DNA of 64,000 nucleotides from a virus (Duplodnaviria; Heunggongvirae; Uroviricota; Caudoviricetes), in IMG/VR virus record IMGVR_UViG_3300023181_000027, positions 35,473-99,472 of that record. One strand, given 5' to 3'. The position numbers and the translations under genes were made by a program. The first letter of the stretch is position 1; each line of letters begins with the position of its first letter. Of this stretch, positions 1 through 31,547 are shown in pieces. Below the pieces are notes generated by a model. That model was given only the letters and a program-made list of their open reading frames with translations. It was not told the DNA's origin and ran no database searches.

Positions 1-576
1 ACCACCATCCATGTACTTATCAATATCTTCAATGATGGTAATAATAGGACGGTGAGGTTCTACCACTCTTAAGTGAGAGTTCGCAAACTCTACAAACCAG
101 AAGAACTCCGTTTGATTAGCTATAGTAAATACTAAACCGCCATTCTTGATAAGCGCCAAGCAAAGTAGATTCTTAATACTGGTTTTACCTGTACCAGGGT
201 GGCCATATAACATCAATCCACGTTTGTGTTTCAGTTTATACTTTTCAAATTTGTCTGCCTTCTCCCAGAAACTAGCCACCTCTTTGATAATCTCATTAAT
301 GTGGTTATTAGGTAAATAATACAGTTCATCCGTTTCTGGATCAACCTTTTGCGCATGAGTTGCACCACGGGAATCTTGGAAAACGGCATACATGCCAGCC
401 TCCATTTTGTCTACAATGTTACTATCGGAACAGCTACTATAAACATCATCAGAGCTTTTAAGCCACTTCATGTTCTCCTCATCTTCATCTTCATCTCTAC
501 GTTCACCCAATCTATGAGGGTTACTTAAATCCAGCAGAAAGCTGAATATACTGTCATTTTGTGCTTCTTCACTCAT
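1..576 (-). CDS. AAA+ family ATPase, N-terminal part (gene runs off the window start)
   Basis: Minus-strand ATG at 574-576 (MSEEAQNDSIF...). The frame is open to position 1. Walker A GLMLYGHPGTGKTS is typical of classic AAA ATPases. Confidence 0.55.
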   Translation of the reverse strand, partial: MSEEAQNDSIFSFLLDLSNPHRLGERRDEDEDEENMKWLKSSDDVYSSCSDSNIVDKMEAGMYAVFQDSRGATHAQKVDPETDELYYLPNNHINEIIKEVASFWEKADKFEKYKLKHKRGLMLYGHPGTGKTSIKNLLCLALIKNGGLVFTIANQTEFFWFVEFANSHLRVVEPHRPIITIIEDIDKYMDGG

Positions 577-586
577 CGTTTGTTTA

Positions 587-1006
587 TTAAAACGGGATCC
601 AACTGTCAAATATTCGTTTCACTTCTGCAATAACTGACTCCTTAGAGTCTAAGCCAAACGTACGGAACTTACTACCATATGTGAGAAACATCTCACACAT
701 TAAGCACACACGCTCTCTCACAAAAGTATCATTCTTACCAGTTGGTTCACCTAGTATAGCTTTCACTATCTCACGGGGACCTGCTAATGGATTCTTCTTC
801 CTTGCGGAAAGTACAAACGCATTGATTAAACTAACCACTGTTAAGAGATCTTCTCCCACAATAGTTGTTCCATCCAAACCAACATTAGAAGTGAGATAAT
901 CTCTCTTCTGTTCATACGTTGGTTGAACGTACCTGGTCTTGTCCCCTTCTAACCCTAACCAATCATGTATTAGGTCGATTTCACCTCTCTCTTCTAATTC
1001 TTCCAT
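587..1006 (-). CDS. hypothetical protein (139 aa)
   Basis: Track ORF, tightly packed with its neighbours. No recognisable motif. Confidence 0.5.
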   Translation of the reverse strand: MEELEERGEIDLIHDWLGLEGDKTRYVQPTYEQKRDYLTSNVGLDGTTIVGEDLLTVVSLINAFVLSARKKNPLAGPREIVKAILGEPTGKNDTFVRERVCLMCEMFLTYGSKFRTFGLDSKESVIAEVKRIFDSWIPF

Positions 1007-1007
1007 A

Positions 1008-2123
1008 TTATATCGATGTAATAGTTTTTAAGTTAATGTCAGTGAAAGTATCAAAGCCATGAACCTTATGGAAGGCTAACCTCTTCAATAGAGTGGTAAA
1101 CTCGAAGTCACCTTTACTCAACCATTGTGGTCCGACAGCAAACACATGTGATAGATAAGGAGCGTTAGTCTCCACGACTAGCATGTTAACATTAAACGTC
1201 CAACTATCATCAAAGCCATACTCGTGTTCAGCATAACTTTTTAAAATGAAGGCGTACATAGCCATTTGTCGATAGTAGTGAAACTTTTGAAAGCTACCTT
1301 CAGCTCTCTTAGTGTACACATTACCATCAAGACCTCCCACTTCAAATGTCGTACCAGCAAAGGTGGCAATTGAAGCACCAGTTGTTTTCAAGTCATTTAG
1401 GGTGAGTATTTTATTCTCTACATCAACAGACCAGTTGTCTATTTTAGCTTTTAGAGAGAACACTATAACTTCATCGTCAAACTTATCAGGATTCGGTGAA
1501 TCCATACTCGCTTGCACTTGCATTGTCATTACATCCTCGTTATAACTTGGGCATCCTGGTTCAAGTAGTTTCATGATCAGTTGATTCTCAGTCACACTTT
1601 TCAAGCAAGCATTAAGTTTTACGTTCTGCTCACTAGTCAATGTAATACAACCGATACACTCACTCACTGCTTTTAAGTGTTCAAGATATACTTTGCCAGC
1701 TTCCAACACATTATCAATACGTTTCTGTGTCAGATTACTGGTATAATAATCACACTCTTTACAAGCTAAGAGTATAGCTTTGTCTGGGCTATATTCTTCA
1801 CTTAGAAGTCTATGGTAACTTTCCATGACTTGTGCAACCTTCCCGGCTGGTTTCTCTACGTCATTAACGTAGTACTTCCCCTTCTCAAGGATCATTTGAT
1901 GTACTGCAGAGCCAAGCTCTAGAGCAGCACCGTTCATACCTCCAGTGTATCCTGTTAGGAACTTGGTTGGCGAACCTCCCTCTTCAGGGTTTATAAGCTT
2001 CAGTAAAGAATTTGACACATAGTCTTTATACTTTGGGCCAAAGTAATCAGCATCGCTTACATTGTCTAATCTAGTTGTTGTTTCTGTCCTGTATTTTAAT
2101 TTGATTTGATTCAGGTTGTACAT
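1008..2123 (-). CDS. putative PD-(D/E)xK family nuclease (RecB/YqaJ/Cas4-like)
   Basis: 371-aa ORF. A D...E-x-K-like segment (WSVDVENKILTLNDLKTTG) is followed by a QxxxY motif (FHYYRQMAMY), as in RecB-fold exonucleases. No significant similarity was computed. Confidence 0.35.
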   Translation of the reverse strand: MYNLNQIKLKYRTETTTRLDNVSDADYFGPKYKDYVSNSLLKLINPEEGGSPTKFLTGYTGGMNGAALELGSAVHQMILEKGKYYVNDVEKPAGKVAQVMESYHRLLSEEYSPDKAILLACKECDYYTSNLTQKRIDNVLEAGKVYLEHLKAVSECIGCITLTSEQNVKLNACLKSVTENQLIMKLLEPGCPSYNEDVMTMQVQASMDSPNPDKFDDEVIVFSLKAKIDNWSVDVENKILTLNDLKTTGASIATFAGTTFEVGGLDGNVYTKRAEGSFQKFHYYRQMAMYAFILKSYAEHEYGFDDSWTFNVNMLVVETNAPYLSHVFAVGPQWLSKGDFEFTTLLKRLAFHKVHGFDTFTDINLKTITSI

Positions 2124-2155
2124 TCATGTTACATAAACATGTTTAAGTGTACAGA

Positions 2156-2311
2156 TTAATCATCATCTTCATCGTAATTGTACGGCATCCAATTAGACTC
2201 GCGATCTATTAGATGTGTTTCTACAAATGAAAGATGATCGTCTTTGCGGTCATTTTTATAGGCATGGTAAGCCTCGGTGGATTGAAGTTCATTGCTAAGA
2301 ACTTGTGTCAT
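2156..2311 (-). CDS. small acidic protein (51 aa), unannotated in the ORF track
   Basis: Hand translation of the minus strand gives MTQVLSNELQSTEAYHAYKNDRKDDHLSFVETHLIDRESNWMPYNYDEDDD*. It fills the 250-nt gap between two genes. Confidence 0.3.
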   Translation of the reverse strand: MTQVLSNELQSTEAYHAYKNDRKDDHLSFVETHLIDRESNWMPYNYDEDDD

Positions 2312-2333
2312 TCTGTAATTAAACATAGTGGTA

Positions 2334-2366
2334 AATTAAAAAAGGGTGACCGTTTCCAGCCACCCT
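2334..2366 (-). terminator. rho-independent terminator-like hairpin
   Basis: In the minus sense, GGGTG...CACCC forms a GC-rich stem followed by TTTTTT. It lies 10 nt downstream of the stop of gene 2376..3515. Confidence 0.5.
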
Positions 2367-2375
2367 AAGTGTGTA

Positions 2376-3515
2376 TTACAATGCTGATAATTCAGCTGTC
2401 TTTGTTTTGATTTTTGCAATCTTCTCTTCGCCAGCAGCAACTGCTTCAGCCAACATTTCTTTCCATTGCTCATTAGATCTCTCTAAATAAGTGGACTCGT
2501 TGTACCTACTTCTGTTTGCAGCAAACAGTGCAGAGTGTGCAAAGTATTCAAGAACACGGATGGCTCCGTCACCGTTGTCTGTAAACGCTCCAATGTGCAT
2601 TGGGTTTACGAAACAGTTTAACAGCAACCTATCGTTACCACCATATCCTTCGATGTATTTCTGACCACCCAAGTGTAAACCTGGAAGACCAGCAGATCCA
2701 TCACTGCAATTAACATTATCCCAAGATGGTAATCTCATTACTTGACCAACTTTAACTCTGTGACCAAGCTCAGAACCAGCGTAGAAGGCATCACCTCTAT
2801 CACCCATGATAGGTGGAATCAGAGAGTAATCTTCTGCTTTCTCAGGCAGGTTAACTGTTGCTTCACCTGTCTCAGCGTCATAAGTTACTTCATAACGGTT
2901 GATTTTCTCACCAGTGGCGGTGTCGAACTTTTTGTAAACGATGTTTACATATTTATAAGTCTGGATTAAACCATTCTTAGTGATACTCACGTCATTGAAA
3001 GTTGACAACTCAGTCGCTTTCGCAGAGGTGTAACCTTCTTTAACAAGCTCAGAGTATTTCTTTTTATCTACGTAAGTAGTTGTGATATACTTAGCGAACA
3101 TTTCGGCTTTCCTTGCGGTCAGCTTAGGGTTCTTAAGCAACCATCCCCACGCTTTGATATACGGTGCAGTAGGCATATTCTTTTCAGTTGCCTCTACAAT
3201 GTAATCAGCAAGTGCTTTTGGTAGCGGTACAGTACTGGTGAAACCATTAGAGTGCAGGAAGAACTTTTGTGACTTGTCGTCAAACTTCAAGTGCTCGCCA
3301 TACGCTTTAAAAGTATCCTCTTCAACTCTAGTTGAGATCACTTCTTTCGCTTGGTCTAAGATAGATTGCGCTTCCTCAACGGTTTCCGCGACATCAAATT
3401 TAGTTTCCAATTCAGTTAATCTCTTTTGAATCTCCTCGTTATAAACGATAGAATACTTTTCATTTCCGATAACACCAGATAATACTGTGTTTAATTTGTT
3501 TACTGTAAGTTGCAT
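2376..3515 (-). CDS. hypothetical protein (379 aa)
   Basis: Track ORF. Gly-rich segments, but no confidently recognisable motif. Confidence 0.5.
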   Translation of the reverse strand: MQLTVNKLNTVLSGVIGNEKYSIVYNEEIQKRLTELETKFDVAETVEEAQSILDQAKEVISTRVEEDTFKAYGEHLKFDDKSQKFFLHSNGFTSTVPLPKALADYIVEATEKNMPTAPYIKAWGWLLKNPKLTARKAEMFAKYITTTYVDKKKYSELVKEGYTSAKATELSTFNDVSITKNGLIQTYKYVNIVYKKFDTATGEKINRYEVTYDAETGEATVNLPEKAEDYSLIPPIMGDRGDAFYAGSELGHRVKVGQVMRLPSWDNVNCSDGSAGLPGLHLGGQKYIEGYGGNDRLLLNCFVNPMHIGAFTDNGDGAIRVLEYFAHSALFAANRSRYNESTYLERSNEQWKEMLAEAVAAGEEKIAKIKTKTAELSAL

Positions 3516-3528
3516 TTATTTATTTATT

Positions 3529-6357
3529 TTATTTCTTATTCAATCCCTCGTACTCATACTCTAGTTGATCTTTCTTGCTTTCTAGTATAACTTTAATTTC
3601 ACTGCTCAGATCGCTATCTAGCACCCTACTATAAGGGTCTTGTAACGGTCCAATATGGTTGAAGATACAACCATATACATCAGCAAATGCGGCCAACTTC
3701 TTCGCTTCTTCAAACATTTCAATATCGATTAATTCGATACCAGTGATGTCCTTGTCAATAGTCTTATCAAACGCTTCATCGATTAAATCCTGAATTGCTT
3801 CGGGGTCTAAAGAAGGGTTTTCAAGAATAATGAGTTGTATCTCATAATGCTTGTTCAAGAAGTCTACATACTTGTTTCCACCTGGCACGGTTTCCTTCGT
3901 AAAGGCTCTACCGTTACCGTGTTGAGTGACAAATTTAGTCAGCTTCTCGAAGCTCTCTCCTATACTAGGATTAAGTTGGTTAAAGTTACGCATAAAATTG
4001 CACTTTCTAGCAATCAATTTTGTAATAATTCTAGAAGTAAATACCTTCCTTATAGCATCATTACCTTTAAGTATACCGTTTTCAACCCCTAATAAATAGT
4101 CTGCAAGCGGTGTTGCCTCTTTAACATACCTTAAGTTAGTTTTAGCTACCTTAAGTATTTTTACTGAGTCATTCCAATAATAGTACTCACCTTTTGTAGC
4201 TGTTCGATCACCATATTGTGTAAGGTTATACAAACAGTTAACAGCGGCCAGATCATCATCACTAGCCAAGACGATTTTACAATTGTCAAAGTCTAACTCA
4301 CCGCCTTTCACCTCGCATCGATCCCAAGCGATCGTATTTTGATAGCTACTAGCATACTTGTTTTTGAGTTTACTTGCTATAAAAGCTTTCTCCTCTCTTC
4401 TCCTTTTAAGTAAGGCCTTGTACTCACGTTTACGTTGTTCCTCGTAATCCTCTTCACTTGTATCTTGCACTTCAGTGTCTTCATCCTCCTCATCGGTATC
4501 AGAAATCTTAAAGCTGTCAGGCACAATAGCTTCAGTGTACAGGCCAACTTGTGCGCTACCCACTCCTTGCATTAAGTAGTTTACAAGTTCAGTCGCTTTC
4601 TCTAACTGTTTCTTAATGTTCTCAATTTTCTTCTCGTCAGTTTCAACAGAGTCCACCTCTGCATTCAGTTTAGTTTTGAACTCCTCTAAGCTCAATTTCT
4701 TCTGTACGAACTCATGAAATATGGGTTCTAGATAACTTAATGACGAAGAAGTACGGAAAACACAGAAACCACCCTCTCTTTCGTGCTGTCCAGCAAGATA
4801 GTGGGTTACACGGTTATTACCCGCTCCAAACTGAAAATACAAAGGTTTGTCAAATCCCAGAACGTTAGTGTTATCAGTTCTGTTTATTTTCTTACTCTGT
4901 TTCCTTGACCAACTGTTACCACGCTCTATTTGAACGTGTTGCATCGCTAACACTGGAGTGAGGAATCCCTTCACATCACTGGTGTATTTGATCTCAGTGT
5001 CTTTAAAGTTTGGTTGTAGTGAAGTTGAGTCTGTAAGTTGAGACATCCTAGCTACCACGTCATTCGAATTTGAATTTGTGGTGTAAAGAATCTTATTACA
5101 GGCTCTCACCCAGTCTACAAGAACAGTTTGCTTCAACTCTTTCTGAATCTTAGCTTCTACTGTACGAGCAACACTCGCATATTTAGCTATGATAGCTTGA
5201 GTGGTTTTCGGAGTGTATCGAACACTCTCCCTTGATGGAACCACATCCAAGTCTTCCATATTGAATTTAATTCCAATATTACCATGCTTAACTTGTAAGT
5301 CAGCCTCATTAAAGTCGATCAATCCATAACTGACATTCTTGATCACAAAGTGTGGTCTTGAATAATAACCGTAATCAGAGAGAACAAGATCATTGTCTTC
5401 ATAAATAGGTGCAGCTTTGAACGGCACGTCTTGTTTGCGGCCATTTACATCAATATCTGTAAAAGTAATATCCGACTTCAGATACATTAGTTGGCTACGT
5501 ACAGCCTCAAAGTATTGATGACGATTATGTTTCTTTACTTCCATGGTGAGCTCAGTACCGTTCTTTTCAGTGGTATCTTTGTAGTACGCTTTATAAGGTA
5601 CCATTCTTGTCCCACTAACCTGAACTTCTATAGTCTCTCCATCAGGTTGAACTTGTGTTTGCATCTCAGTGAACTTCTCTGAAACCAATACACTACTAAA
5701 CTCAACCCACTTGTTAGCCTTGCCATCATCACCCCATTTACCGTATACACAGTCAACTTTATGCGAATAGATATCAAAACAAAACTCTTTCCCATTGTAA
5801 CGAGTTAGTATTCTGTAACTCTCAACACCTGTCGCTAATGGTGATTTAGCACCTAAACCAAATCCTCCAAGCTCATTGGTATTCAACCTCTTAGAACTGT
5901 AACCAAGAGAGAAGAATCCCTCTAATCTTTTACCACCTAACCCTACACCAGGGTCAATGATTTTAAAGATATCACGTTTAGTTTGCTCACTAGTATAATA
6001 CTCCAATTTAACAGTATCTGTATCACTTAACCACTGTAGATCGTAATAATCTGGGTTAAACTCACTGTCCTGGTAAATATCGTCTTCATCTTTTGAGATC
6101 TTATCCTTCACGTCTTCACGTGTCAGATAGAAATCACTTACTTTAGCTTCACCGCTCTTTATCTTTTTCGCCGTTATCTTCTCTTTTACAGCATCAACTG
6201 CGTTACTAACACATTCTCGAACAGCACTTTGTATCGGTTTCTGATACATCAACGCTTGTAAATTGTCTAACATCATTGTACGCGCACTAGCGTGTATACC
6301 TTTGTCGAAACCACTCGTATTGTTCGAGACTGTCTGGTTACTATCTAAAACTGCCAT
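3529..6357 (-). CDS. GHKL (Bergerat-fold) ATPase, Hsp90/MORC-like, 942 aa
   Basis: N-box-like RECVSNAVDAV (compare Hsp90 ELISNASDA), G1-box DPGVGLG and G2-box GGFGLGAKS lie in the N-terminal 250 aa. There is a long acidic linker (DTDEEDEDTEVQDTSEEDYEE). Confidence 0.55.
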   Translation of the reverse strand: MAVLDSNQTVSNNTSGFDKGIHASARTMMLDNLQALMYQKPIQSAVRECVSNAVDAVKEKITAKKIKSGEAKVSDFYLTREDVKDKISKDEDDIYQDSEFNPDYYDLQWLSDTDTVKLEYYTSEQTKRDIFKIIDPGVGLGGKRLEGFFSLGYSSKRLNTNELGGFGLGAKSPLATGVESYRILTRYNGKEFCFDIYSHKVDCVYGKWGDDGKANKWVEFSSVLVSEKFTEMQTQVQPDGETIEVQVSGTRMVPYKAYYKDTTEKNGTELTMEVKKHNRHQYFEAVRSQLMYLKSDITFTDIDVNGRKQDVPFKAAPIYEDNDLVLSDYGYYSRPHFVIKNVSYGLIDFNEADLQVKHGNIGIKFNMEDLDVVPSRESVRYTPKTTQAIIAKYASVARTVEAKIQKELKQTVLVDWVRACNKILYTTNSNSNDVVARMSQLTDSTSLQPNFKDTEIKYTSDVKGFLTPVLAMQHVQIERGNSWSRKQSKKINRTDNTNVLGFDKPLYFQFGAGNNRVTHYLAGQHEREGGFCVFRTSSSLSYLEPIFHEFVQKKLSLEEFKTKLNAEVDSVETDEKKIENIKKQLEKATELVNYLMQGVGSAQVGLYTEAIVPDSFKISDTDEEDEDTEVQDTSEEDYEEQRKREYKALLKRRREEKAFIASKLKNKYASSYQNTIAWDRCEVKGGELDFDNCKIVLASDDDLAAVNCLYNLTQYGDRTATKGEYYYWNDSVKILKVAKTNLRYVKEATPLADYLLGVENGILKGNDAIRKVFTSRIITKLIARKCNFMRNFNQLNPSIGESFEKLTKFVTQHGNGRAFTKETVPGGNKYVDFLNKHYEIQLIILENPSLDPEAIQDLIDEAFDKTIDKDITGIELIDIEMFEEAKKLAAFADVYGCIFNHIGPLQDPYSRVLDSDLSSEIKVILESKKDQLEYEYEGLNKK

Positions 6358-6366
6358 TTCTTATTC

Positions 6367-6696
6367 TTAACTATCACTTAATCCTCTCGCTTCATCTTCC
6401 AATCTGTTAAGTATAATCAGATCCTTCATTAATTCACTAATCGCCTCTGCTTCCATACGTGCAGCATGATCCTGTACCTCACTAAATAACAGCTTTCTTT
6501 CGTGTGATATGAAATTTAACACACGGTGGATTCTACCATCATAGAGTGGCGGTAACATAACCACTTCATTTTTCTTACCATAAGAAGGAAAACCATCTCT
6601 AGTATCAACTACGTCTTTCGGCACAGCTTTACCACGATAACGCTCTTCTTCTAAAGAAGAAAATACAGGCTTATCGCCATCGCTACTTCCACTCAT
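6367..6696 (-). CDS. hypothetical protein (109 aa)
   Basis: Track ORF with a 4-nt overlap with the downstream gene. Confidence 0.45.
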   Translation of the reverse strand: MSGSSDGDKPVFSSLEEERYRGKAVPKDVVDTRDGFPSYGKKNEVVMLPPLYDGRIHRVLNFISHERKLLFSEVQDHAARMEAEAISELMKDLIILNRLEDEARGLSDS

Positions 6697-7520
6697 CGTA
6701 CAATGTTTCTAAGTTTCAACTCCTTAATCCTTCTATAACCGACATCATAGAACTGATTGTGTGTTGCATCCATTAAGAATGTACAGATACCAGCCCTCAT
6801 CGCTTCAGAGAAATTCTCAAATCTGTCATCAATGAAGATGTCAGTTCCAAGTTTCTTAAGTTCTTCAACTTTACTTGCCCCAAAAGGCACGTGAATCACC
6901 GGCCGGCATGGAAGACCATTCTTCTCCAACCATTCTTCAGTCCATTCAACTGGAATACCTCTGCTACTCACATAAGCGTGAGGAATGAAATCAGGCTTTC
7001 TAAGCAGGGGTAACCCTGTCCAGAACTCTTTATCGGCTGATAACTTTTTAAGCTCCTCACCGGTCTTATATTCGCTATCCCAGTAGTTTGCTGCTAACTT
7101 GTGACCAGTGTAAGCTCGGTAACCCCCGGCCCAATCACAAACCACTTCATCAACATCTAAGACCACTTTACGTTGATTCAGATATGGTTTATACCTATCA
7201 TCAAATTGTGGGTTGGAACGATAGTAATCAATTAAGAACATGGCATTTACAGCCACATGGGCCATATGATAGATACCACTTTCTGGGTCGAAGTCTTCAC
7301 AATCCTTATAGGCCATTAAATGCCTTTGTAAACTTGCTTCAACTTCACTCCATGGCATACCTTTACGCCAGTTGTTTGGTGCGTACTTTAACGCGCCCTT
7401 TGTCATAACCTTACCTATTTGCTCAAGGGCATACTCGGGAATCAATTGTAATTGATTCTTACCAGTATTGAACCTATCGCCTCTAGCTAACTCCTGCTGT
7501 TTCTCTCTCTCTTCTGACAT
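6693..7520 (-). CDS. putative nucleotide-processing enzyme: N-terminal all-alpha NTP-pyrophosphohydrolase-like domain fused to a HAD 5'(3')-deoxyribonucleotidase-like domain
   Basis: The C-terminal half has a DxDxV HAD motif (VVLDVDEVVCDW), as in 5'(3')-deoxyribonucleotidases. The N-terminal half (KYAPNNWRKGMPWSEV) resembles phage dNTP pyrophosphohydrolase-like modules. Assignment is by motif only. Confidence 0.4.
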   Translation of the reverse strand: MSEEREKQQELARGDRFNTGKNQLQLIPEYALEQIGKVMTKGALKYAPNNWRKGMPWSEVEASLQRHLMAYKDCEDFDPESGIYHMAHVAVNAMFLIDYYRSNPQFDDRYKPYLNQRKVVLDVDEVVCDWAGGYRAYTGHKLAANYWDSEYKTGEELKKLSADKEFWTGLPLLRKPDFIPHAYVSSRGIPVEWTEEWLEKNGLPCRPVIHVPFGASKVEELKKLGTDIFIDDRFENFSEAMRAGICTFLMDATHNQFYDVGYRRIKELKLRNIVR

Positions 7521-7530
7521 CTTTTTTATT

Positions 7531-7983
7531 TTAACTGAATCCCTCAGTTAGCACTTCATGTACTTTTACAGCTGTTTCTATTGGTAATCTAGAATTACGG
7601 TTTCCCGCAATATTAAACACCTTATAACCTTCAGCAATAAGAGTTTTGATTTGCTCCACTGTAGGGTTTGTAACCAACCTTTTAAAGTGGCTACGGCAAT
7701 AATTCTTTGCTGCAATGCTTCCTGGGCTGCTAACATCCCCGAACAACAAAGTAATATCACTATTCATTATGTTCATCTCGGTACGTGGATTATATTCGCT
7801 ACTGTTGTGCTCCATTAATCCATATATTGTTTTTAATGCCATACAAGGGCCAGTTTCAGTACGATAACCTCTTGGCGCACAGCCTCCTGTTTCAATACCT
7901 AAATCCTTAGCCACTGCCAATCCTATTTGATCGACACCTGTTTGACCTCCGCTGATGATTTTCATCGTGTTCTCACCCAACAT
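7531..7983 (-). CDS. SLOG-family Rossmann protein (YpsA / MoCo-carrier-like)
   Basis: N-terminal motif KIISGGQTGVDQIGLAVAKDLGIETGG matches the GGQTGxD signature of the YpsA/SLOG clade. Confidence 0.5.
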   Translation of the reverse strand: MLGENTMKIISGGQTGVDQIGLAVAKDLGIETGGCAPRGYRTETGPCMALKTIYGLMEHNSSEYNPRTEMNIMNSDITLLFGDVSSPGSIAAKNYCRSHFKRLVTNPTVEQIKTLIAEGYKVFNIAGNRNSRLPIETAVKVHEVLTEGFS

Positions 7984-8055
7984 TCATAACATAAATCGCT
8001 ACCGTCTTTGCCACAGTAACGACAACTTCTACTATTTACAAGTTGATATTTCATT

Positions 8056-8427
8056 TTAATATAACCTTAATCGTTTAGTAATCTTATCGATCTCTTCTGC
8101 ATAACAAGGTCCTATAGCTCCACATGTAACAGTTGGTTCAGTAAATTCGGTACGGCCTTCATCAGTAATTCTACTCAGCGGTAAGCCTAACTCTTTTGCT
8201 TTGTCAATTACCTTGTCTAATTCAGCTAACGATTTACAAGCTAAGACTATTTTTGTAATCCCAGTTTGCTCCCACTCACTTTTTATGTCCATACAGGCGG
8301 ATAGACCATATTTGGCTTCCCAATATAAATCTTCCAAAGCCAACTGACTAGCATGAGCACCTTGAGCAATAGCTTTCCCCATTGACATTTCAATATCCTT
8401 TCGGACAATTATTACTTGTTTTACCAT
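8056..8427 (-). CDS. pth2: peptidyl-tRNA hydrolase, PTH2 family
   Basis: Collinear motifs GKAIAQGAHAS ... WE..GQ.K.V... GLP...ITDEGRTEF...TVTCGAIGP match the archaeal/eukaryotic PTH2 family (compare human PTRH2 ...[20 protein letters not shown]). Confidence 0.8.
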   Translation of the reverse strand: MVKQVIIVRKDIEMSMGKAIAQGAHASQLALEDLYWEAKYGLSACMDIKSEWEQTGITKIVLACKSLAELDKVIDKAKELGLPLSRITDEGRTEFTEPTVTCGAIGPCYAEEIDKITKRLRLY

Positions 8428-13639: not shown

Positions 13640-14866
13640 TTAAAACCTAAATAAAAAGTTTGTTTCTTTGTGTCTTCTCTCAGTAAACTCACCAGTAGTG
13701 AGAAAGTCGTCTAGTTGCTTTTCGTTAAGCGTAACTACCTTAAGGTCCTTACTACTCTTCTTAAACCACTCTTCTTCCACAGTACCTTTAATTACCAGAT
13801 GCCATACCTCAGCCACCTTATCTCCTTCTTTTCGGATTGAGCGACCAATTCTTTGACGTTTGGTAATTGATGAGCTATCGCCTGAGAGTATAATTATTGT
13901 GTCTACGCCTGTAACGTCAGCTCCCACATTTAAAGCTTGGCATGAATTAAGAGTTCCACTATCAGCATCGTTAAATGACTGTAACATCTTCTCTTTCTTC
14001 TTCTTACTCACTTTCCCATGATATATGTCTCCACAGCAGATTTGCTTAGCGTGATCAACTGATTTTGTAAATGTAATGATCTTTGCATTTTCACGTGCAT
14101 TGATGATCTTATCCGCTATCTCAATCTTCTTTAAGTGGTCATATATAAAGCTCTTTCGGGCTTTCATGGCTTTTATAAACCCCATGGCAGCTATTGTAAC
14201 CTCTCCTGGAGATTTATGTTTATGTTTGGCATAGTGATACCTGTAGCCATTAAGACCACTGACACACTTCATTGCCTCATTAAAATCAAACTCAAAGAAA
14301 GAGAAATAATGTAGGAACTTAGTGTTCCATTTGGCATATTCTGTCAGATCTACATCCAACATGACACGGTATTGCTTATAATCAGCGACCCACTCGTACT
14401 TGATAGCATCATCAAGTGTGATACGATCACATATAGGGGCGTACTGTTGTAACATTACCTCCTTACCATCTAGTCTATCGATAGTACCAGTAAGGCAAAG
14501 TATTAACTTGTATTTAACTTGATGAAAGATTGCTGAGAAGCTCTCAGCAACCATCATATGCACTTCATCGACAATCAACAAATCGCAACTTAACTCACGT
14601 TTGATAGCTGTGTTTACTACATACACGTCCACGTGTTGTATGAGTTCCCTCTCAATAAGCTCTTTTATCCATTGCTCTTTTAAATTGTCGGTTGGTACGA
14701 TGACTATCATCTTAGCATCCGCTTTCTTCGCTAACATTCGAGTGATGATTTTCATCGCCACTCTAGTCTTACCAAATCCAGTAGGATACAAACATGTAGC
14801 CCTTCCACCAGCTTTTTTCCAATGTTCTATCCCTTCATCTTGACGTGCATCACGTGTTAGAGTCAA
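13640..14866 (-). CDS. SF2 DEAD/DEAH-box helicase (UvsW/RAD25-like)
   Basis: Motif I PTGFGKTRVA, motif II LLIVDEVH, motif III LTGT and motif VI QRIGRSIR are all present. Confidence 0.75.
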   Translation of the reverse strand: MTLTRDARQDEGIEHWKKAGGRATCLYPTGFGKTRVAMKIITRMLAKKADAKMIVIVPTDNLKEQWIKELIERELIQHVDVYVVNTAIKRELSCDLLIVDEVHMMVAESFSAIFHQVKYKLILCLTGTIDRLDGKEVMLQQYAPICDRITLDDAIKYEWVADYKQYRVMLDVDLTEYAKWNTKFLHYFSFFEFDFNEAMKCVSGLNGYRYHYAKHKHKSPGEVTIAAMGFIKAMKARKSFIYDHLKKIEIADKIINARENAKIITFTKSVDHAKQICCGDIYHGKVSKKKKEKMLQSFNDADSGTLNSCQALNVGADVTGVDTIIILSGDSSSITKRQRIGRSIRKEGDKVAEVWHLVIKGTVEEEWFKKSSKDLKVVTLNEKQLDDFLTTGEFTERRHKETNFLFRF

Positions 14867-16869
14867 AATAGTGTTTCTTGTATTGGTTCCAACAAAGCTA
14901 TCACTTTATTACATGCGTGGATATAATAACGATAATCAATGTCGTATTGTTTTATTGGTCTCTCTTCATACTCATTAAACAGTTGTACGCCGAAACCTTT
15001 CAACACGTTAGACTTGATTAACACCTGTCCAACCTGTCCAGTCTTTCTATCGTACTTGTCAACTGTCTTACATTTATAAAGATAAGCACCTTTTCTACTC
15101 ACGTAGAATCGATTAATGTGTTGTTGTGGTTTAAGATACCACTCAACTTCATACTGCTTACCAATCTTTTGGAATGTAATGAAATCCCATATTGAACGTG
15201 CACCACGTATGGTGTCTTCAACTGGTATTCCCTTACCGAAGTAATTAATCAGTGCCTTTGCTACAATGAGACTGTCTAAACCTTTCCCTAATCTAGGATT
15301 AGATACAAACAAGCCTTTCTCTTTCACATAGGCGTTCTTCTTAATAGTATTGCTCTCTGGAGTTAGTAGAGGGTATGTGAAGTTAAACTCCACTGCTTTT
15401 TCCGGGGTATCGAAATCTATGGTATCTTTAACATCTGACCAACCTTTCTTAAACGCGACATAATCATTAACCGCCATAATGACAATCTTTTCATACTCCA
15501 CGTATTCTAACTCTAAACGAGTTTCAGTTTGCCATTTGTTGCAGATCTCATAGAACAATTCAACCTTTTCACGTGGGCATTTGACAGTTACACCATCTGT
15601 ATTAGACGATATCACCTCAATTCCAGCCAACTCACATCTTTCGATAAGCATTAACAACATAAGCTGTCCTGCCACACAAATACCAATGTTAGCTTCTGGA
15701 GCATAATAAGGTGAGAACATATTCCTCAAATTCCCTAAGATGCTATTCAACGCCAGTTTATAAGTTGTATCTTTCAATTTGTCTTTTGCGCGTTTGGCAA
15801 CAAGACGGTCTGTACGAAGATCTTCGAGTACTTGCAAGAAGGCCTCTTTAAATCCTGCAGGACCATACTTGTATAGAATTGCCAGTGATGGATACAGCGA
15901 TGCCACATCAGCATCAATAATGACGTACTTTTCATCCTCTGTATGCACTTTAGGAGTGTTTACAGAGTGTACGCCACCAACGCCAAATGAATGACGTAGA
16001 TTATTAATCCTTTGAATGATGCTGGTCTCACCCCAACCTTCAACCCGCTTTAATCCTTCAGAGTCGAGTACCATACCTTGATAAAAGTTTAATACTCTGT
16101 TTGCCTCTGGAGTTTCAAACTTAATGAACTCTGGAATGTAGTCTTTAACAACGATCTCATCTAAGTTAATCCTAGACGAATAAAGTTGCTTTTCATCGTA
16201 AATACCCAGGTTAGCACATATCCTTTTAGTAAATATGTCCACACCTATACCCACACCATCCTTCGATAGGCAGTCAATGCCAAACTCATTTTGAATCTGT
16301 ATTCTCAAAGAGATGTCATTTTTTAATAACGACATCAAATACGAGGTGGAATTCACATCGTTATGACAATAATAGATCAGATTATCATGTTGATCAATTG
16401 GAATGTATCTGTCCCAGTCAATCAACATCTCTTTGACATTATGATAGCACATTGTTATTTGCAGACTCTTTAATCCGACTCTTAGAGCTTTAGAAGCCAT
16501 CATAGTCATCAAGTCCATCTGCGCAAAACTGTTCTGCCATTTATACTTACTCCATGCTTGTGGTTCACCATTGATAATTGTACCTGCTAGTTTATAACAA
16601 GCATCAGCCACCAACAAGTAATTCCTGTCACGTTGAAACTCCCAAAACCTACTGATTAGCATATTCACAATAGGTGTATCAAAATGTATACAGTTGTATC
16701 CTACAAACACATACTGATCATCTTGAAAGAAGTCAACAAGCTCCTTTAACTGAAACTTCCTTGCACTTATCTCAAATGTACGTATTATCTCTTCACCCAC
16801 CACTTTAGCACAACATATGAAGGCATTTGGCGGGGTTTCAACGTCATATACACAGAGTTTCCGCTTCAT
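14863..16869 (-). CDS. family B DNA polymerase (compact, 668 aa) with 3'-5' exonuclease
   Basis: Exo I VYDVETP, Exo II YNCIHFDTPI and Exo III YYCHNDVNS are present. Pol motif A is DADVASLYPSL (DxxSLYPS), with a motif C-like SNTDGV. Confidence 0.7.
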   Translation of the reverse strand: MKRKLCVYDVETPPNAFICCAKVVGEEIIRTFEISARKFQLKELVDFFQDDQYVFVGYNCIHFDTPIVNMLISRFWEFQRDRNYLLVADACYKLAGTIINGEPQAWSKYKWQNSFAQMDLMTMMASKALRVGLKSLQITMCYHNVKEMLIDWDRYIPIDQHDNLIYYCHNDVNSTSYLMSLLKNDISLRIQIQNEFGIDCLSKDGVGIGVDIFTKRICANLGIYDEKQLYSSRINLDEIVVKDYIPEFIKFETPEANRVLNFYQGMVLDSEGLKRVEGWGETSIIQRINNLRHSFGVGGVHSVNTPKVHTEDEKYVIIDADVASLYPSLAILYKYGPAGFKEAFLQVLEDLRTDRLVAKRAKDKLKDTTYKLALNSILGNLRNMFSPYYAPEANIGICVAGQLMLLMLIERCELAGIEVISSNTDGVTVKCPREKVELFYEICNKWQTETRLELEYVEYEKIVIMAVNDYVAFKKGWSDVKDTIDFDTPEKAVEFNFTYPLLTPESNTIKKNAYVKEKGLFVSNPRLGKGLDSLIVAKALINYFGKGIPVEDTIRGARSIWDFITFQKIGKQYEVEWYLKPQQHINRFYVSRKGAYLYKCKTVDKYDRKTGQVGQVLIKSNVLKGFGVQLFNEYEERPIKQYDIDYRYYIHACNKVIALLEPIQETLF

Positions 16870-28474: not shown

Positions 28475-29260
28475 TTATTCGATTATGCCTTTTGATTTGG
28501 CAAGTTTTAAGTAATCCGGGAACTCACCAAGTAGACGGCCATATAGCTCTTCGTCACTTAATGTTTCCAGCTCCTTTTGTGTAAGTTCGAAGAAGTTGGC
28601 ATTGTCAATGAACCTGCCACTCATAACATCCAAACGCTTTAAGAAAGCGAAGTTATCACCTGTCGACAAGCCGATAAACTGCCAGAAAATGCCATATTTA
28701 CTGGCTTCAATGATGGCACGCTCAGCTTCTCTTTCATCAAAGTTACTTCCATCAGTGAGGAACATAACGTACGCTGGATACTTCGCTTTAGTACCAGTGA
28801 TGTTAACTTGCGTGGTTTTCTTCTTAAACAAACCTAAGAAACCCGCTTCCTCTTTCGTCTCTGTTGTAGAGCCAAAGATAGATGGGTCATTCTTATACTC
28901 GTTTGTAATCAACGTGATTGCCGGAGCATAGTTAGTACCACCAAATGAATAACGTGGGATCACGTACTTGTTGATATAACCTTCAACGTTATTGATAGTT
29001 ACAGGTTCTGGAACTTTAATACATCCATCATGGAATACATACTGTTCCATCTCACTGTTGTCATCAAACGCCATTGCGATAGGCGTAAGCCTCTCTTGTA
29101 CACGCTGTACGAAACCTCTATTATAGAGATTCCTCATACTGCCAGAAATATCACAGCAGAATTTGACCAGGGCTTTCTGGTCAATGCTTACACCTTTTTT
29201 CTTTGTCAGGTCAAGAACAACCTGTTTGCTTAAATTAAGCTTTCTTTGTAACTCGCTCAT
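28475..29260 (-). CDS. vWA-domain protein, TerY-like
   Basis: MIDAS motif KFCCDISGSMRN and a second motif VMFLTDGSNFDE, about 260 aa as in TerY. Confidence 0.6.
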   Translation of the reverse strand: MSELQRKLNLSKQVVLDLTKKKGVSIDQKALVKFCCDISGSMRNLYNRGFVQRVQERLTPIAMAFDDNSEMEQYVFHDGCIKVPEPVTINNVEGYINKYVIPRYSFGGTNYAPAITLITNEYKNDPSIFGSTTETKEEAGFLGLFKKKTTQVNITGTKAKYPAYVMFLTDGSNFDEREAERAIIEASKYGIFWQFIGLSTGDNFAFLKRLDVMSGRFIDNANFFELTQKELETLSDEELYGRLLGEFPDYLKLAKSKGIIE

Positions 29261-30081
29261 TGCGTTTGATCTAATAGTAAAAAATTCGTCTTATAAAGCT
29301 CATGATGAGCGTAGTTGTTAGCAAGACCTGCTTTCCACAGGTCTGTACGAAAACGTGGAGACATTGCACCTAACACATATCCGAACATCCCCCTTGATAG
29401 AGATAACAGATACTTAGTCAATCTTGTATTCACAATGATATCGTGAGCCAATAACTCCCAAATGGCAGAACCAACTGGTGTAATCTTAGCATGATTCAAT
29501 TGAGATTCTATTCCAGGATCACATTCGCCAGTAAGTTGGGCGTAATAAGCAAAGACTAAGCTTTTAGATAGTATGTTCAAACTGTCAAACATCTTTTCCA
29601 CTCGTCTCTCGTGTGCTCCAGTAATGTAAATGTCATCGATACAAATGACGTGCTTACCCTCAAGTAAAGCTGGTTCGACATGAAATGTCTCTCCTGTTAT
29701 ACTCTTCTCTCTAAGTTCTGCTGACATATTACCATAATCATCATGGTAAGAATGTTGCCTGCTTATTTTAAAGGTCTTTATAGTTATCCACTCTCCTAAC
29801 CTAGTAGAAGAATGTGGAAGTAACAACCTTTGTAAGAAAGCTGCAGTATACTCAGCAAGAGCAGTCGAAGCAACAGGTACTTGATTGTAAGGAGCTCCAG
29901 TGATAAACACTTCCTCTCCCTCTTTCACTGTATCCATAATGTATAAGCCCAATCTCCAGGCAAGTTCTTGAGCGAACTTTACAGTTACTGACATTTTACC
30001 ATATTTAAACTCTGAATACTGCTCCTTATTAAAGTTTACATCGTCGCTACAACTGAATTTATGAATTGCTATCCTTTGCAT
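29257..30081 (-). CDS. phosphoribosyltransferase (PRTase-fold) protein, Ter-associated type
   Basis: PRPP-binding motif HVICIDDIYITGAHE (hydrophobic-DD-hydrophobic-xTG). Confidence 0.55.
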   Translation of the reverse strand: MQRIAIHKFSCSDDVNFNKEQYSEFKYGKMSVTVKFAQELAWRLGLYIMDTVKEGEEVFITGAPYNQVPVASTALAEYTAAFLQRLLLPHSSTRLGEWITIKTFKISRQHSYHDDYGNMSAELREKSITGETFHVEPALLEGKHVICIDDIYITGAHERRVEKMFDSLNILSKSLVFAYYAQLTGECDPGIESQLNHAKITPVGSAIWELLAHDIIVNTRLTKYLLSLSRGMFGYVLGAMSPRFRTDLWKAGLANNYAHHELYKTNFLLLDQTQ

Positions 30082-30751
30082 AATCTTCCAGTTTATCCCT
30101 CAATTCACACCATGATTGAGCGTTTGTTATTTGAAATGCCTCCATACCAGCTTTACGGGCAGGTACGAGATCTGTAATAGGATCATCGCCAATATGTAGT
30201 GTCTCCTTAGCTGCATGCTTATTAAGCATAACCACATTAAAGTATATTAGTGGATCAGGTTTACACATTCCAATCTCATCCGAGAAGAAGCAGTTAATCC
30301 TGCTAGTGTCCACACCATAATTCTTCAATACCTGCAATAACACTTTACCTTTAACAAATTGCGTGTTACTGACAATTGAAAGGGCATCACTTGCTCCAGC
30401 TCTAAAGTTGTTGATGAGATCAACACATTTAGGATAGATTAAGATTGGCGGATGCTCAAGGACCAACTTGTCAAACAGTGACAGATATGCATTATCGCAC
30501 GCATCTGGACCAATTTTTAACCGATCAAGTACCAGCATATGTTTGAACTCATACGGTACTTCCCTGGCATAACGTTTTTGGAATGTATTCACTTGCCAAC
30601 TCACCTGTTTAAAAGCTAAGTCGATTTGATTGATGTCCAAAACATGATCCTCATAAACTGTTTGAATAATCTCCGCACGTGCTGCACTGTACGAAGGGTT
30701 GCTTTTAAATATGGTTCCCCATAAGTCAAAGCTTAAATGTTTGATTGCCAT
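30059..30751 (-). CDS. HAD-superfamily hydrolase/phosphatase
   Basis: HAD motif I LSFDLWGTIF (DxWGT) near the N-terminus, and a C-terminal motif IV IGDDPITD. Confidence 0.55.
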   Translation of the reverse strand: MAIKHLSFDLWGTIFKSNPSYSAARAEIIQTVYEDHVLDINQIDLAFKQVSWQVNTFQKRYAREVPYEFKHMLVLDRLKIGPDACDNAYLSLFDKLVLEHPPILIYPKCVDLINNFRAGASDALSIVSNTQFVKGKVLLQVLKNYGVDTSRINCFFSDEIGMCKPDPLIYFNVVMLNKHAAKETLHIGDDPITDLVPARKAGMEAFQITNAQSWCELRDKLEDYAKDSNS

Positions 30752-30763
30752 AACGGCTACAGC

Positions 30764-31339
30764 TTATTTAAACGCGTCAACGATTTCACGTAAGGTTCCA
30801 TCAACTGGAGTACCCATCGCATTGAATTTCCACCCACCGTCATGACGATAGAGTTCACCGGCAAATACACCGCTCGCTGTTGAAGAGTCTTCACTCAAAT
30901 CGAAACGATACAGCTCATCACCGGTTTCAGCATTAAAAATACGGATATAGGCGCGATTCACTTGACCGAAGTTCTGTCCTTTAACTGCAGCGTCATAAAT
31001 GTTGACTAAGAACACTAAACGTGCGGCTTTAGCAGCAATATCAGCTAAAGTTACAGTCACCACTTCATCATCAGCGTCTGCGCTGTTACCACCTGTAAGG
31101 TCATCACCAGAGTGTTTAATACCAGCAATCTCAAGATTGGCGAAACACACAATGGATTCAGGTTCTTCGCTGATCAGTTTGTTCTTATCGTCAATGACAA
31201 TAACCGTAGCGTCCAGATCGAAAGTTTTGCCACCAGGTGCAGCTTCATCCCATCCTAAACCAAAACCTACCACTTTTAAAGTTGAATTCTCTTTTGTTAA
31301 AGCCAGCTTCTGGCCTTTTACTAAATTTAAACTTGACAT
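30764..31339 (-). CDS. terD: TerD-domain protein
   Basis: FGLGWDE, DLDATVIVID and the acidic Ca-binding-like stretch GDDLTGGNSADADDE match the TerD/TerE/TerZ family at about 190 aa. Confidence 0.75.
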   Translation of the reverse strand: MSSLNLVKGQKLALTKENSTLKVVGFGLGWDEAAPGGKTFDLDATVIVIDDKNKLISEEPESIVCFANLEIAGIKHSGDDLTGGNSADADDEVVTVTLADIAAKAARLVFLVNIYDAAVKGQNFGQVNRAYIRIFNAETGDELYRFDLSEDSSTASGVFAGELYRHDGGWKFNAMGTPVDGTLREIVDAFK

Positions 31340-31352
31340 CTGTTAATATTTA

Positions 31353-31547
31353 TTATTTATAATTAATTATTTCGTGTAATGTTATGATAATTACGATCAA
31401 CTGCAAGCTTCCACATAAGAAGTACACTTGTTCGCTTAAATTGTAATGTTCAATAATACTGTGTAATAAAAAGAGCATAGCCAATCCAGCTATGCTCTTT
31501 AAAAGGATTTTAATCACTCTTACTCTTTTAGATCGCCCATGTTCCAA
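31353..31547 (-). CDS. small membrane protein (64 aa)
   Basis: One hydrophobic helix. Confidence 0.3.
   Translation of the reverse strand: MEHGRSKRVRVIKILLKSIAGLAMLFLLHSIIEHYNLSEQVYFLCGSLQLIVIIITLHEIINYK

Follow-up and report, generated by a model that had tools for sequence, protein, structure and literature searches.

A very probable, divergent rIIA-rIIB gene pair inserted in a crAss-like replication backbone

What would a phage do with a 942-residue ATPase of the GHKL type? The question is posed by a gene in the window, as we call the whole 64,000-nucleotide stretch of viral DNA that was analyzed, and it had been left by a preliminary description with several possible answers, among them a three-gene system. 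Our analyses led to more familiar ground: the protein is very probably a divergent RIIA, with its partner, rIIB, encoded downstream, i.e., it adds a new member to a family that is already known, though mechanistically unsolved, and is no orphan novelty. Since a gene pair of this accessory kind is already known, it does not amount to a new system. The best explanation overall, that the gene is the rIIA of an rIIA-rIIB pair with an accessory role, was judged to be probable, a judgment weighted towards the identity of the pair. The rIIA and rIIB genes are among the most famous of molecular genetics and their mechanism is still unsolved; we know of no biochemical mechanism that has been established for RII proteins, those of T4 included.

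The ATPase and its conserved core

The reading frame and motifs of the preliminary description stood up well to scrutiny. The gene is a single ORF on the minus strand, its N-box, G1 and G2 motifs lie where they had been placed (Table 1) and are invariant across 48 homologs, and the catalytic acidic residue of the Bergerat fold is present as E48, which is likewise invariant in all 48. The N-box (ExxxNxxD), G1 (DxGxG) and G2 (GxxGxG) signatures are intact at residues 48-55, 135-139 and 164-169, respectively. Among the 48 homologs, the mean identity of which was 31%, the invariant residues included E48, N52, D55, D135, G137, G139, G164, G167, G169, K171, R376 and E377, and this invariance of the GHKL motif residues is far beyond chance. 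No transmembrane helix was predicted in the protein (maximum KD19 of 0.89) and its AF2 model had a mean pLDDT of 82.5, and as judged from sequence and model the 942-aa protein would be a soluble Bergerat-fold ATPase.

The two halves of the protein have had different histories of conservation. Identity to the reference was 45-63% in the N-terminal half versus 16-31% beyond residue 400, which indicates a C-terminal half that is apparently fast-evolving, in agreement with PMC7824862, in which the C-terminal domain of rIIA orthologs is described as "highly variable". The long acidic linker seen earlier was confirmed, with 15 D/E among residues 611-640 and a pLDDT of <50 at residues 623-633, and the C-terminal half outside the linker was confidently folded in the model. 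In Pfam and NCBIfam scans the protein matched HATPase_c_3 alone and below threshold (20.5 bits versus a cut-off of 25); T4 rIIA likewise fell under the cut-off of this model, at 22.1 bits.

Table 1. Features of the rII locus and its flanking genes in the window.
Feature	Residues	Window positions	Strand	Remarks
Classical AAA ATPase gene, Walker A GHPGTGKT		1-576	minus	N-terminal 192 of 327 aa, at window edge; outside rII unit
PD-(D/E)xK exonuclease gene (ExoVIII/DUF3799-like)		1008-2123	minus	Backbone recombination module; outside rII unit
Predicted terminator-like hairpin		2343-2366	minus	Consensus scan; 10 bp stem, 6 GC pairs, then TTTTTAATTT
rIIB-like gene		2376-3515	minus	379 aa; 13 nt downstream of rIIA-like gene
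rIIA-like gene		3529-6357	minus	One 942-aa ORF; GHKL (Hsp90-like) ATPase
Variable C-terminal half	401-942	3532-5157	minus	Low conservation
Acidic disordered linker	611-640	4438-4527	minus	In C-terminal half of rIIA-like protein
PSRE block		5227-5238	minus	Invariant; second domain of rIIA-like protein
Conserved N-terminal half	8-400	5158-6336	minus	Bergerat ATPase domain and second, "middle/transducer-like" domain
G2, GGFGLGAKS	164-172	5842-5868	minus	
G1, DPGVGLG	135-141	5935-5955	minus	
N-box, RECVSNAVDA	47-56	6190-6219	minus	

Kinship with RIIA and RIIB

The best PHROG for the protein was phrog_612, annotated "RIIA" (E = 7e-22, over residues 258-677), of which T4 rIIA is a full-length member. 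An hhalign comparison of the family profile (A1, 48 homologs) with T4 rIIA gave a probability of 98% (E = 3e-13, 278 columns), pairing residues 8-359 with T4 residues 9-302 and extending past the ATPase core into a common IKF...PSRE block, and when the HMM of the same profile was run against control ORFs its sole match was T4 rIIA, at 37.8 bits. T4 rIIA as a phmmer query directly matched five of the related loci, and BLASTP of the window protein against T4 rIIA was weak (best E = 2e-4). The relationship was supported by Foldseek searches of BFVD, in which the model matched the RIIA of KVP40, pf16, 44RR2.8t, Bmoc, Weasels2, RB43 and other phages across 850-1,050 aligned columns (E from 1e-15 to 1e-19, best 1.7e-19), with TM scores of 0.3-0.5 that are low because of domain orientation. 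Alignments of such length include the C-terminal half, the homology of which to RIIA rests on these low-TM matches and on the coverage of phrog_612 to residue 677.

The product of the partner gene matched T4 rIIB by BLASTP (E = 5e-6), fell into the families of T4 rIIB (PHROG 609 and 36818) and, as profile A2, aligned by hhalign with the C-terminal domain of T4 rIIB (97.8%, E = 6.8e-13, 153 columns; T4 residues 151-304); the A2 HMM also detected T4 rIIB, at 50.5 bits. Phmmer and profile searches of PDB sequences with the protein yielded nothing significant. The AF2 model of the rIIB-like protein (pLDDT 88.3) matched RIIB proteins from many phages, N4-like ones among them, as well as the natural RIIA-RIIB fusion of RB43, which was matched by the models of both proteins. 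In 31 of the 33 related viral loci rIIB lies directly downstream of rIIA, the remaining two contigs stopping at rIIA, and the same arrangement was found in the loci L042 and L043, in the latter of which the pair is retained within a different backbone. The predicted terminator-like hairpin lies ~10 nt past the rIIB stop codon and likely marks the 3' end of an rIIA-rIIB transcription unit.

An N-terminal HTH has been the ground for calling T4 rIIB a transcription factor (PMC7824862), and HTH_7, HTH_28 and related models do match its residues 7-50. No HTH was found in the window protein or in any of 35 family members, and the N-terminus of the model consists of three beta-strands followed by long helices. 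As RIIB N-termini differ widely in length, it is doubtful that an HTH is a defining feature of RIIB, and it would appear to be dispensable for the family.

Several features are shared with the T4 pair ("protector from prophage-induced early lysis"; phrog_612/phrog_609): a single strand on which rIIA precedes rIIB, a GHKL ATPase at the N-terminus of RIIA in which the N-box, G1 and G2 motifs agree, the IKF...PSRE block in the second domain, a C-terminal RIIB domain with a common GLH motif, the lack of a predicted transmembrane helix in either RIIA or RIIB, and an accessory distribution that is not universal in the lineage. The differences are also considerable. Identity to T4 rIIA is only ~22% across the aligned region, and the window protein, at 942 aa versus 725 aa in T4, has a conserved insert specific to its clade at residues 68-115 (with invariant S98, Y104 and L110) and a variable beta-hairpin at ~201-260 in addition to the acidic linker; RIIB is 379 aa versus 312 aa in T4, with an insert at ~197-256, and is without the N-terminal HTH. 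The genes lie in a crAss-like replication module here and in the topoisomerase/denB region in T4. Likeness of fold over the full length of both proteins was found with N4-like podoviruses, jumbo phages and actinophages (KVP40, pf16, Bmoc, Weasels2, Roseovarius phage 1 and the RB43 fusion), and the pairing of rIIA- and rIIB-like genes has been described as widespread yet poorly understood (PMC8594841; PMC7824862).

Unlike those phages, the clade to which the window proteins belong could not be detected by tblastn in any of 50,697 deposited phage genomes (GenBank records; RIIA at E<=1e-5, RIIB at E<=1e-3) and is known only from metagenomes, as "hypothetical protein". At E<=10, nearly all of the weak tblastn matches listed for RIIA (25 of 1,145 records) were on genes annotated rIIA, and megablast of window positions 1-8000 against the same number of GenBank phages produced no match. 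The preliminary description had considered large GHKL proteins to be rare in phages, a view that is contradicted by the 12,285 representative clusters matched by the family profile at E<=1e-3, the 647 matched at E<=1e-30 and the dozens of RIIA models in BFVD. The rII family gains a large unannotated clade of at least 647 clusters (50% identity, E<=1e-30) known from metagenomes only, and several hundred "hypothetical proteins" can be given a name.

Genomic setting and possible roles

The rIIA and rIIB genes are part of a ~4.5 kb insertion in a replication/recombination backbone that is otherwise collinear: the gut phage MT835492.1 is collinear with the window across 11 genes, and in its genome a dGTPase-like gene abuts the exonuclease. 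An rII HMM scan of whole genomes found no rII genes in MT835492.1 or in the crAss-like cr10_1. The DNA polymerase of the window is 38% identical to that of cr10_1, and all of the primase matches (124 of 124) were to crAss-like or Bacteroidota phages. No structural hallmark genes are present within the 64-kb window, and the hallmark proteins of cr10_1 gave only marginal matches to MT835492.1; the flanking sequence covered showed RNR genes and small ORFs only. Based on these sequences, the carrier phage, like the clade as a whole, has a crAss-like replication module, lineage being compared by this module alone, and probably infects Bacteroidota. No relevant literature on rII genes was found for crAss-like phages or Crassvirales.

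The pair acts like a cassette that can be inserted into a conserved backbone, and this supports an accessory, anti-defense role. The rIIA and rIIB genes of T4-like phages protect against RexAB (PMC8594841; PMC10312443), and RIIB is a trigger of a CARD-gasdermin defense (PMC10312443) and of Tmn (PMC13001434). As in T4, the pair could be an accessory early function that sustains infection against the abortive infection systems of a host or prophage, and those countered would be of the RexAB type, acting on the membrane or on cell energy. Arguing by analogy, we would give such an anti-abortive-infection role in this phage an even chance. It would come at a cost, with RIIB itself being sensed by other defenses (CARD-gasdermin systems and Tmn). 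An anti-defense function had been proposed in the preliminary description, and for the rII pair it is plausible; as the function of a system with the nuclease and AAA+ ATPase it is not supported. With regard to mechanism, ATP binding would close the lid and an N-terminal strap and so clamp two RIIA protomers together, as in other dimerizing GHKL ATPases, with the gamma-phosphate sensed by K364 or R376 of the second domain. These details of an ATP clamp are tentative. The specificity for a target would come from the variable C-terminal half of RIIA together with RIIB.

It is unlikely, if conceivable, that in this clade of Bacteroidota phages the pair has diverged from T4 in what it does. RIIA and RIIB might then be an Hsp90-like ATP-driven machine that would protect or remodel replication-recombination intermediates, or the membrane attachment of the replisome, against Bacteroidota-specific defenses, with RIIB perhaps the natural trigger of the Pedobacter CARD-protease defense. 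That Pedobacter system has, to our knowledge, so far been tested with the RIIB of coliphage T6 only. The pair, with its HTH-less RIIB, is inserted in the replication/recombination module beside the exonuclease slot.

Decidedly unlikely is a pair that is at heart a core replisome or membrane-anchoring factor, with RIIA an Hsp90-like ATP-driven chaperone that would assemble or tether the replication-recombination machinery along with RIIB, and anti-defense not primary. The pair is certainly embedded in a replication/recombination module, with primase upstream in 32 of the 33 loci, directly so in about half, and has Sak4-like, RusA-like and exonuclease genes as neighbors; the Hsp90-like fold, middle domain included, is consistent with a chaperone, and T4 RIIB is described as a membrane-anchoring component of the replisome in literature cited in PMC13001434. 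However, MT835492.1 and cr10_1 possess a collinear or homologous module and have no rII genes, so the module works without them, and the apparently fast-evolving C-terminal half resembles an arms-race protein more than a core factor. It also counts against a core role that the growth of T4 rII mutants is normal when the host is non-restrictive.

The preferred reading, an accessory rIIA-rIIB pair, had also to be weighed against the proposal that the GHKL ATPase, the PD-(D/E)xK nuclease and the AAA+ ATPase form a three-component system for anti-defense or DNA processing, a proposal that the co-occurrence data have largely refuted and that we regard as very improbable. The three genes are close together on the same strand and their order is retained in L042, a 69%-identical relative; some exonuclease gene lies <=5 kb from the rII pair in 26 of the 33 loci, and in L043 a PDDEXK_1 gene precedes rIIA. 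Such a trio nevertheless omits the true partner of the ATPase, rIIB, which is separated from the nuclease by the predicted terminator-like hairpin. The nuclease, which had been called adjacent to the ATPase, is set apart from it by the rIIB-like gene and a 56-aa ORF, and the AAA gene, which had been called upstream, is downstream in the direction of transcription (576 to 1).

Both of these genes belong to the crAss-like replication/recombination backbone. The nuclease matches PHROG 412 and DUF3799 and has homologs in cr10_1, cr118_1, cr50_1 and MT835492.1; the full-length AAA gene, found on a contig of the same sample, carries PF00004, with an ortholog in L042 and a homolog, gp_19741, in cr10_1. 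Homologs of the nuclease in cr10_1 and MT835492.1, and of the AAA gene in cr10_1, consequently occur in genomes without rII. Across the 33 related loci the exonuclease slot was held by the nuclease family in 12 (a count from transitive clustering, with 4 detected directly by phmmer) and by an unrelated exonuclease family in 14, with no overlap, and the AAA gene was near the pair in only one. In PADLOC none of RIIA, RIIB and the nuclease had a significant match, RIIA giving only a sub-threshold one to BrxA (E = 0.0026), and the AAA fragment resembled IetA-type AAA ATPases generically only.

Fold comparisons with other GHKL ATPases

The closest solved folds to the model of the rIIA-like protein were those of TRAP1, Hsc82 and GRP94 (E ~6e-9, ~600 columns), and the Hsp90 family ranked ahead of MORC, SMCHD1 and GyrB/ParE. 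The Hsp90-like character attributed to the protein from its N-box, which is similar to that of Hsp90 (SNAVDA versus SNASDA), was thus borne out at the fold level, as its N-terminal half is most like Hsp90/TRAP1, and the match spans the ATPase and middle domains. In sequence there is no significant relationship: phmmer and profile searches of PDB sequences returned nothing significant (E>=0.017 for the profile), and NCBIfam gave no HSP90 match for the window protein. The TM scores of the fold matches were low. The dimerization domain of Hsp90 is, as far as tested, unrelated to the C-terminal half of the rIIA-like protein, which, unlike the Hsp90 family, has a dedicated partner in RIIB.

MORC3, MORC4 and SMCHD1 were also among the fold matches (E ~1e-6), MORC4 was marginal in the PDB-sequence profile search (E = 0.023), and the sub-threshold HATPase_c_3 was the best Pfam model, all of which could point to a MORC/paraMORC-like, DNA-clamping GHKL ATPase for DNA compaction or silencing, e.g., in host takeover or superinfection exclusion. 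We find this exceedingly improbable, since the matches to the Hsp90 family were longer and stronger, no DNA-binding domain was detected in the protein, and the relationship to RIIA, with its PSRE block and rIIB partner, fits the data better. There is next to no likelihood that the protein serves a phage type II topoisomerase as its ATPase subunit, in the manner of T4 gp39: GyrB, ParE and TopoVI-B were among the GHKL fold matches, but GyrB/ParE ranked below Hsp90, MORC and RIIA, the sole TOPRIM-type gene among those scanned was a DnaG-like primase, with no TOPRIM or GyrA-like partner, and the homology was to T4 rIIA and not to gp39, a distinct T4 gene. The refuting outcome named in the preliminary description, a topoisomerase II ATPase alongside a TOPRIM partner gene, was not what the scans gave.

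The catalytic loop in the middle domain of Hsp90 carries an SRE motif, to which the invariant PSRE block of the RIIA-like proteins may correspond; an hhalign comparison with Escherichia coli HtpG aligned the G1-G2 region alone, with a probability of 24%. Together with the GHKL motifs, K364 and the conserved N-terminal strap, the PSRE block makes up an invariant core that offers a definition of the minimal RIIA engine.

Relationship of the GHKL ATPase to T4 rIIA and to Hsp90

Pfam recognized in the 942-aa GHKL ATPase of the window (RIIA) a sub-threshold HATPase_c_3 domain alone (20.5 vs 25 bits), a cut-off below which T4 rIIA likewise falls (22.1 bits). The protein matched four PHROG families annotated as "RIIA", the top one, phrog_612 (E=7e-22), including T4 rIIA as a full-length member. 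Pairwise BLASTP with T4 rIIA (sequence taken from AF158101) produced three weak HSPs, collinear in both proteins, and a profile of 48 sequences matched it with 98% probability (E=3e-13, 278 columns), pairing residues 8-359 with T4 residues 9-302, from the ATPase core through to a common "IKF...PSRE" block. T4 rIIA was also the sole match of the RIIA-family HMM (37.8 bits) among the ORFs of two T4 regions and the whole genome of the crAss-like phage cr10_1.

In a Foldseek comparison of the predicted model (mean pLDDT 82.5) with BFVD, the best named matches were RIIA of KVP40, pf16, 44RR2.8t, Streptomyces phage Bmoc and Rhodococcus phage Weasels2, among others (850-1,050 aligned columns); a natural RIIA-RIIB fusion in RB43 was matched by the models of both proteins (in BFVD for RIIA). 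In the PDB the Hsp90 family ranked first (TRAP1, Hsc82 and GRP94; E about 6e-9, about 600 columns across the N and middle domains), above MORC3/4, SMCHD1, GyrB/ParE and TopoVI-B. The "Hsp90-like" label of the preliminary description therefore holds at the level of the fold, although no significant relationship between RIIA and Hsp90 was found by sequence.

The Bergerat motifs reported earlier are in place (RECVSNAVDA, residues 47-56; DPGVGLG, 135-141; GGFGLGAKS, 164-172), and 48 aligned homologs with a mean identity of 31% show no variation at E48, N52, D55, D135, G137, G139, G164, G167, G169 or K171. This invariance, which extends to the catalytic Glu, shows the Bergerat signature to be real and selected for. 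Identity to the reference is 45-63% across the conserved residues 1-400 and 16-31% across the variable residues 401-942. Clade-specific features include a conserved insert at residues 68-115, in which S98, Y104 and L110 are invariant, a beta-hairpin of variable sequence (about residues 201-260), and the acidic linker that had been described, which has 15 D/E within residues 611-640 and is predicted to be disordered. In addition, G16 and K19 are near-invariant within a disordered N-terminus and, in the second domain, R376/E377 are invariant and K364 near-invariant. These residues may correspond to the strap and the gamma-phosphate sensor of GHKL ATPases that dimerise. No TM helix was predicted in RIIA or in its partner, RIIB.

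In IMG/VR loci L022-L024, L028-L031 and L034, the RIIA homolog is split into at least two ORFs, or is a tblastn match of ~3.6 kb with 720-770-aa ORFs, and one database homolog (P0062, 1,139 aa) has a GIY-YIG domain (PF01541) fused to its GHKL domain. Possible explanations are recoded stop codons and the insertion of introns or homing endonucleases.

RIIB and the distribution of the pair

The preliminary description overlooked the gene directly downstream, whose product matches PHROGs 609 and 36818 ("RIIB"), the families into which T4 rIIB falls. BLASTP aligned it with T4 rIIB across the C-terminal "GLH" domain (E=5e-6), a profile of 35 sequences matched T4 rIIB at 97.8% (E=6.8e-13), and the RIIB-family HMM had T4 rIIB as its sole match (50.5 bits). 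The fold matches of its predicted model (pLDDT 88.3) included RIIB of myoviruses and N4-like podoviruses. Whereas T4 rIIB has an HTH at residues 7-50, none was detectable in any of the 35 family members.

Of 33 IMG/VR loci encoding a RIIA homolog, 31 have an rIIB homolog as the next gene downstream on that strand, and the other two contigs stop at rIIA. The pair is retained in a 69%-identical relative (L042) and, as a 26%-identical homolog, on a different backbone (L043). The RIIA profile, searched against 1.84 billion representatives, matched 12,285 clusters at E<=1e-3, with the stricter cut-offs of E<=1e-10 and E<=1e-30 leaving 4,427 and 647, numbers that contradict the supposed rarity of large GHKL proteins in phages. 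RIIA-family members among the matches listed were unnamed or "hypothetical protein", tblastn found no deposited phage genome with a detectable member of this clade, and the literature searched yielded no mention of rII in crAss-like phages. The pair represents a divergent clade, new to a family that is known but mechanistically unsolved, and not a new kind of system.

A cassette within a crAss-like replication module

Comparison of replication-module genes placed the DNA polymerase closest to those of crAss-like phages (38% identity), and all 124 primase matches were to crAss-like or Bacteroidota-infecting phages. SD-like cores precede just 3 of 40 genes (starts 587-42596), the leaders being A/T-rich. 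Few such cores are expected for Bacteroidota hosts, and their rarity points to a host of that type, in agreement with the primase matches.

Features of the window
Feature	Coordinates	Strand	Remarks
AAA ATPase gene	1-576	minus	
Exonuclease gene	1008-2123		ExoVIII/DUF3799-like
s56	2156-2326	minus	56-aa ORF bordering rII pair within inserted segment
Terminator-like hairpin	2366-2343	minus	3' of rIIB stop codon
rIIB-like gene	2376-3515	minus	379 aa; 13 nt downstream of RIIA gene
RIIA gene	3529-6357	minus	942 aa; single ORF
p109	6367-6696	minus	small ORF bordering rII pair within inserted segment
Accessory genes (n=3)	6693-8427	minus	between primase and rIIA
DNA polymerase gene	14863-16869	minus	
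NAD+ salvage pair	19180-22589	minus	
Large ORF	25161-27059	minus	632 aa; no Pfam/PHROG match
Ter-like cluster	27473-32467	minus	
SPFH/Band-7 gene	31520-32467	minus	after Ter-like cluster genes
Large ORF	35209-36669	minus	486 aa; no Pfam/PHROG match
Large ORF	62038-63621	minus	527 aa; no Pfam/PHROG match

The proposal that the ATPase, nuclease and AAA+ genes formed a trio was not supported. The nuclease, said to be next to the ATPase, is separated from it by the 379-aa gene and the 56-aa ORF, and the AAA gene, placed upstream, is in fact downstream. By transitive clustering, the nuclease family occurs near the rII pair in 12 of the 33 loci. The AAA gene recurs in one of the 33. An unrelated exonuclease family, phrog_107, occupies the nuclease slot in 14 other loci with zero overlap, and most of the seven contigs with neither family are truncated. 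Furthermore, cr10_1 has homologs of the nuclease, AAA gene (gp_19741), primase and polymerase, and no rII genes; nuclease and AAA genes belong to the backbone and are not rII partners. The AAA gene is full length on a same-sample contig (L047 2045-3028), encoding a 327-aa PF00004 protein whose N-terminal region resembles IetA (E=8e-10), the AAA protein of the defence system IetAS.

Primase, Sak4-like and RusA-like genes also recur nearby and, with the exonucleases, place the pair inside a replication and recombination module. That it might be a core replisome chaperone is a view weakened because collinear replication modules exist without it. The most telling comparison is the gut phage MT835492.1 (121.6 kb), collinear with the window across 11 replication-module genes, yet matched by neither rII HMM anywhere in its genome, its dGTP-diphosphohydrolase-like gene abutting the exonuclease. 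Consequently, p109-rIIA-rIIB-s56 is a cassette, about 4.5 kb long, that can be present in or absent from the conserved backbone. The MT835492.1 module lacks a homolog of the polymerase, which is nevertheless 38% identical to the cr10_1 enzyme; this suggests polymerase replacement within the conserved module.

None of the related loci has a homolog of p109, which L042 also lacks, and s56 has none among the 33 IMG/VR loci; a 55-aa ORF lies at the corresponding position in L042. In T4 (167103-168903), a small ORF, denB.1, and then the nuclease gene denB (endonuclease IV) come after rIIB, an order resembling rIIB, s56 and exonuclease (1008-3515) here; annotation assigns the two nucleases to different enzyme types, and the likeness is probably a coincidence. 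Of the accessory genes, one encodes a PTH2 peptidyl-tRNA hydrolase and another a circularly permuted YpsA/SLOG protein; the product of the third joins a dATP/dGTP diphosphohydrolase N-domain to an NT5C-like domain. This MazZ-like enzyme might be a hint that the phage DNA contains a modified purine; no PurZ-like gene was found among the ORFs scanned.

Possible role of the pair and other genes of the window

In the pair, a GHKL ATPase of Hsp90-like fold, whose catalytic motifs are intact and whose C-terminal half evolves fast, is accompanied by an obligate downstream partner, and the two genes behave as a cassette. In T4-like phages, rIIA/B guard against the RexAB abortive-infection system (PMC8594841; PMC10312443), and RIIB is sensed by CARD-gasdermin systems, one of them from Pedobacter (PMC10312443), and by Tmn (PMC13001434). 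In the mechanism proposed here, ATP would drive dimeric clamping of RIIA, specificity would come from its variable C-terminal half and RIIB, and together the two proteins may neutralise an abortive-infection response that the natural host directs at the membrane or at cell energy.

Elsewhere in the window, a nicotinamide phosphoribosyltransferase (phrog_448, E=9e-180) and a PRPP-synthetase-like protein (Pribosyltran and Pribosyl_synth domains) form an NAD+ salvage pair that fits phage counter-measures to NAD+-depleting defences. The Ter-like stress-response cluster encodes a membrane protein (phrog_7180), a vWA-TerF-like protein (E=9e-54) and a ComF-like PRTase_3 protein (E=2e-38).
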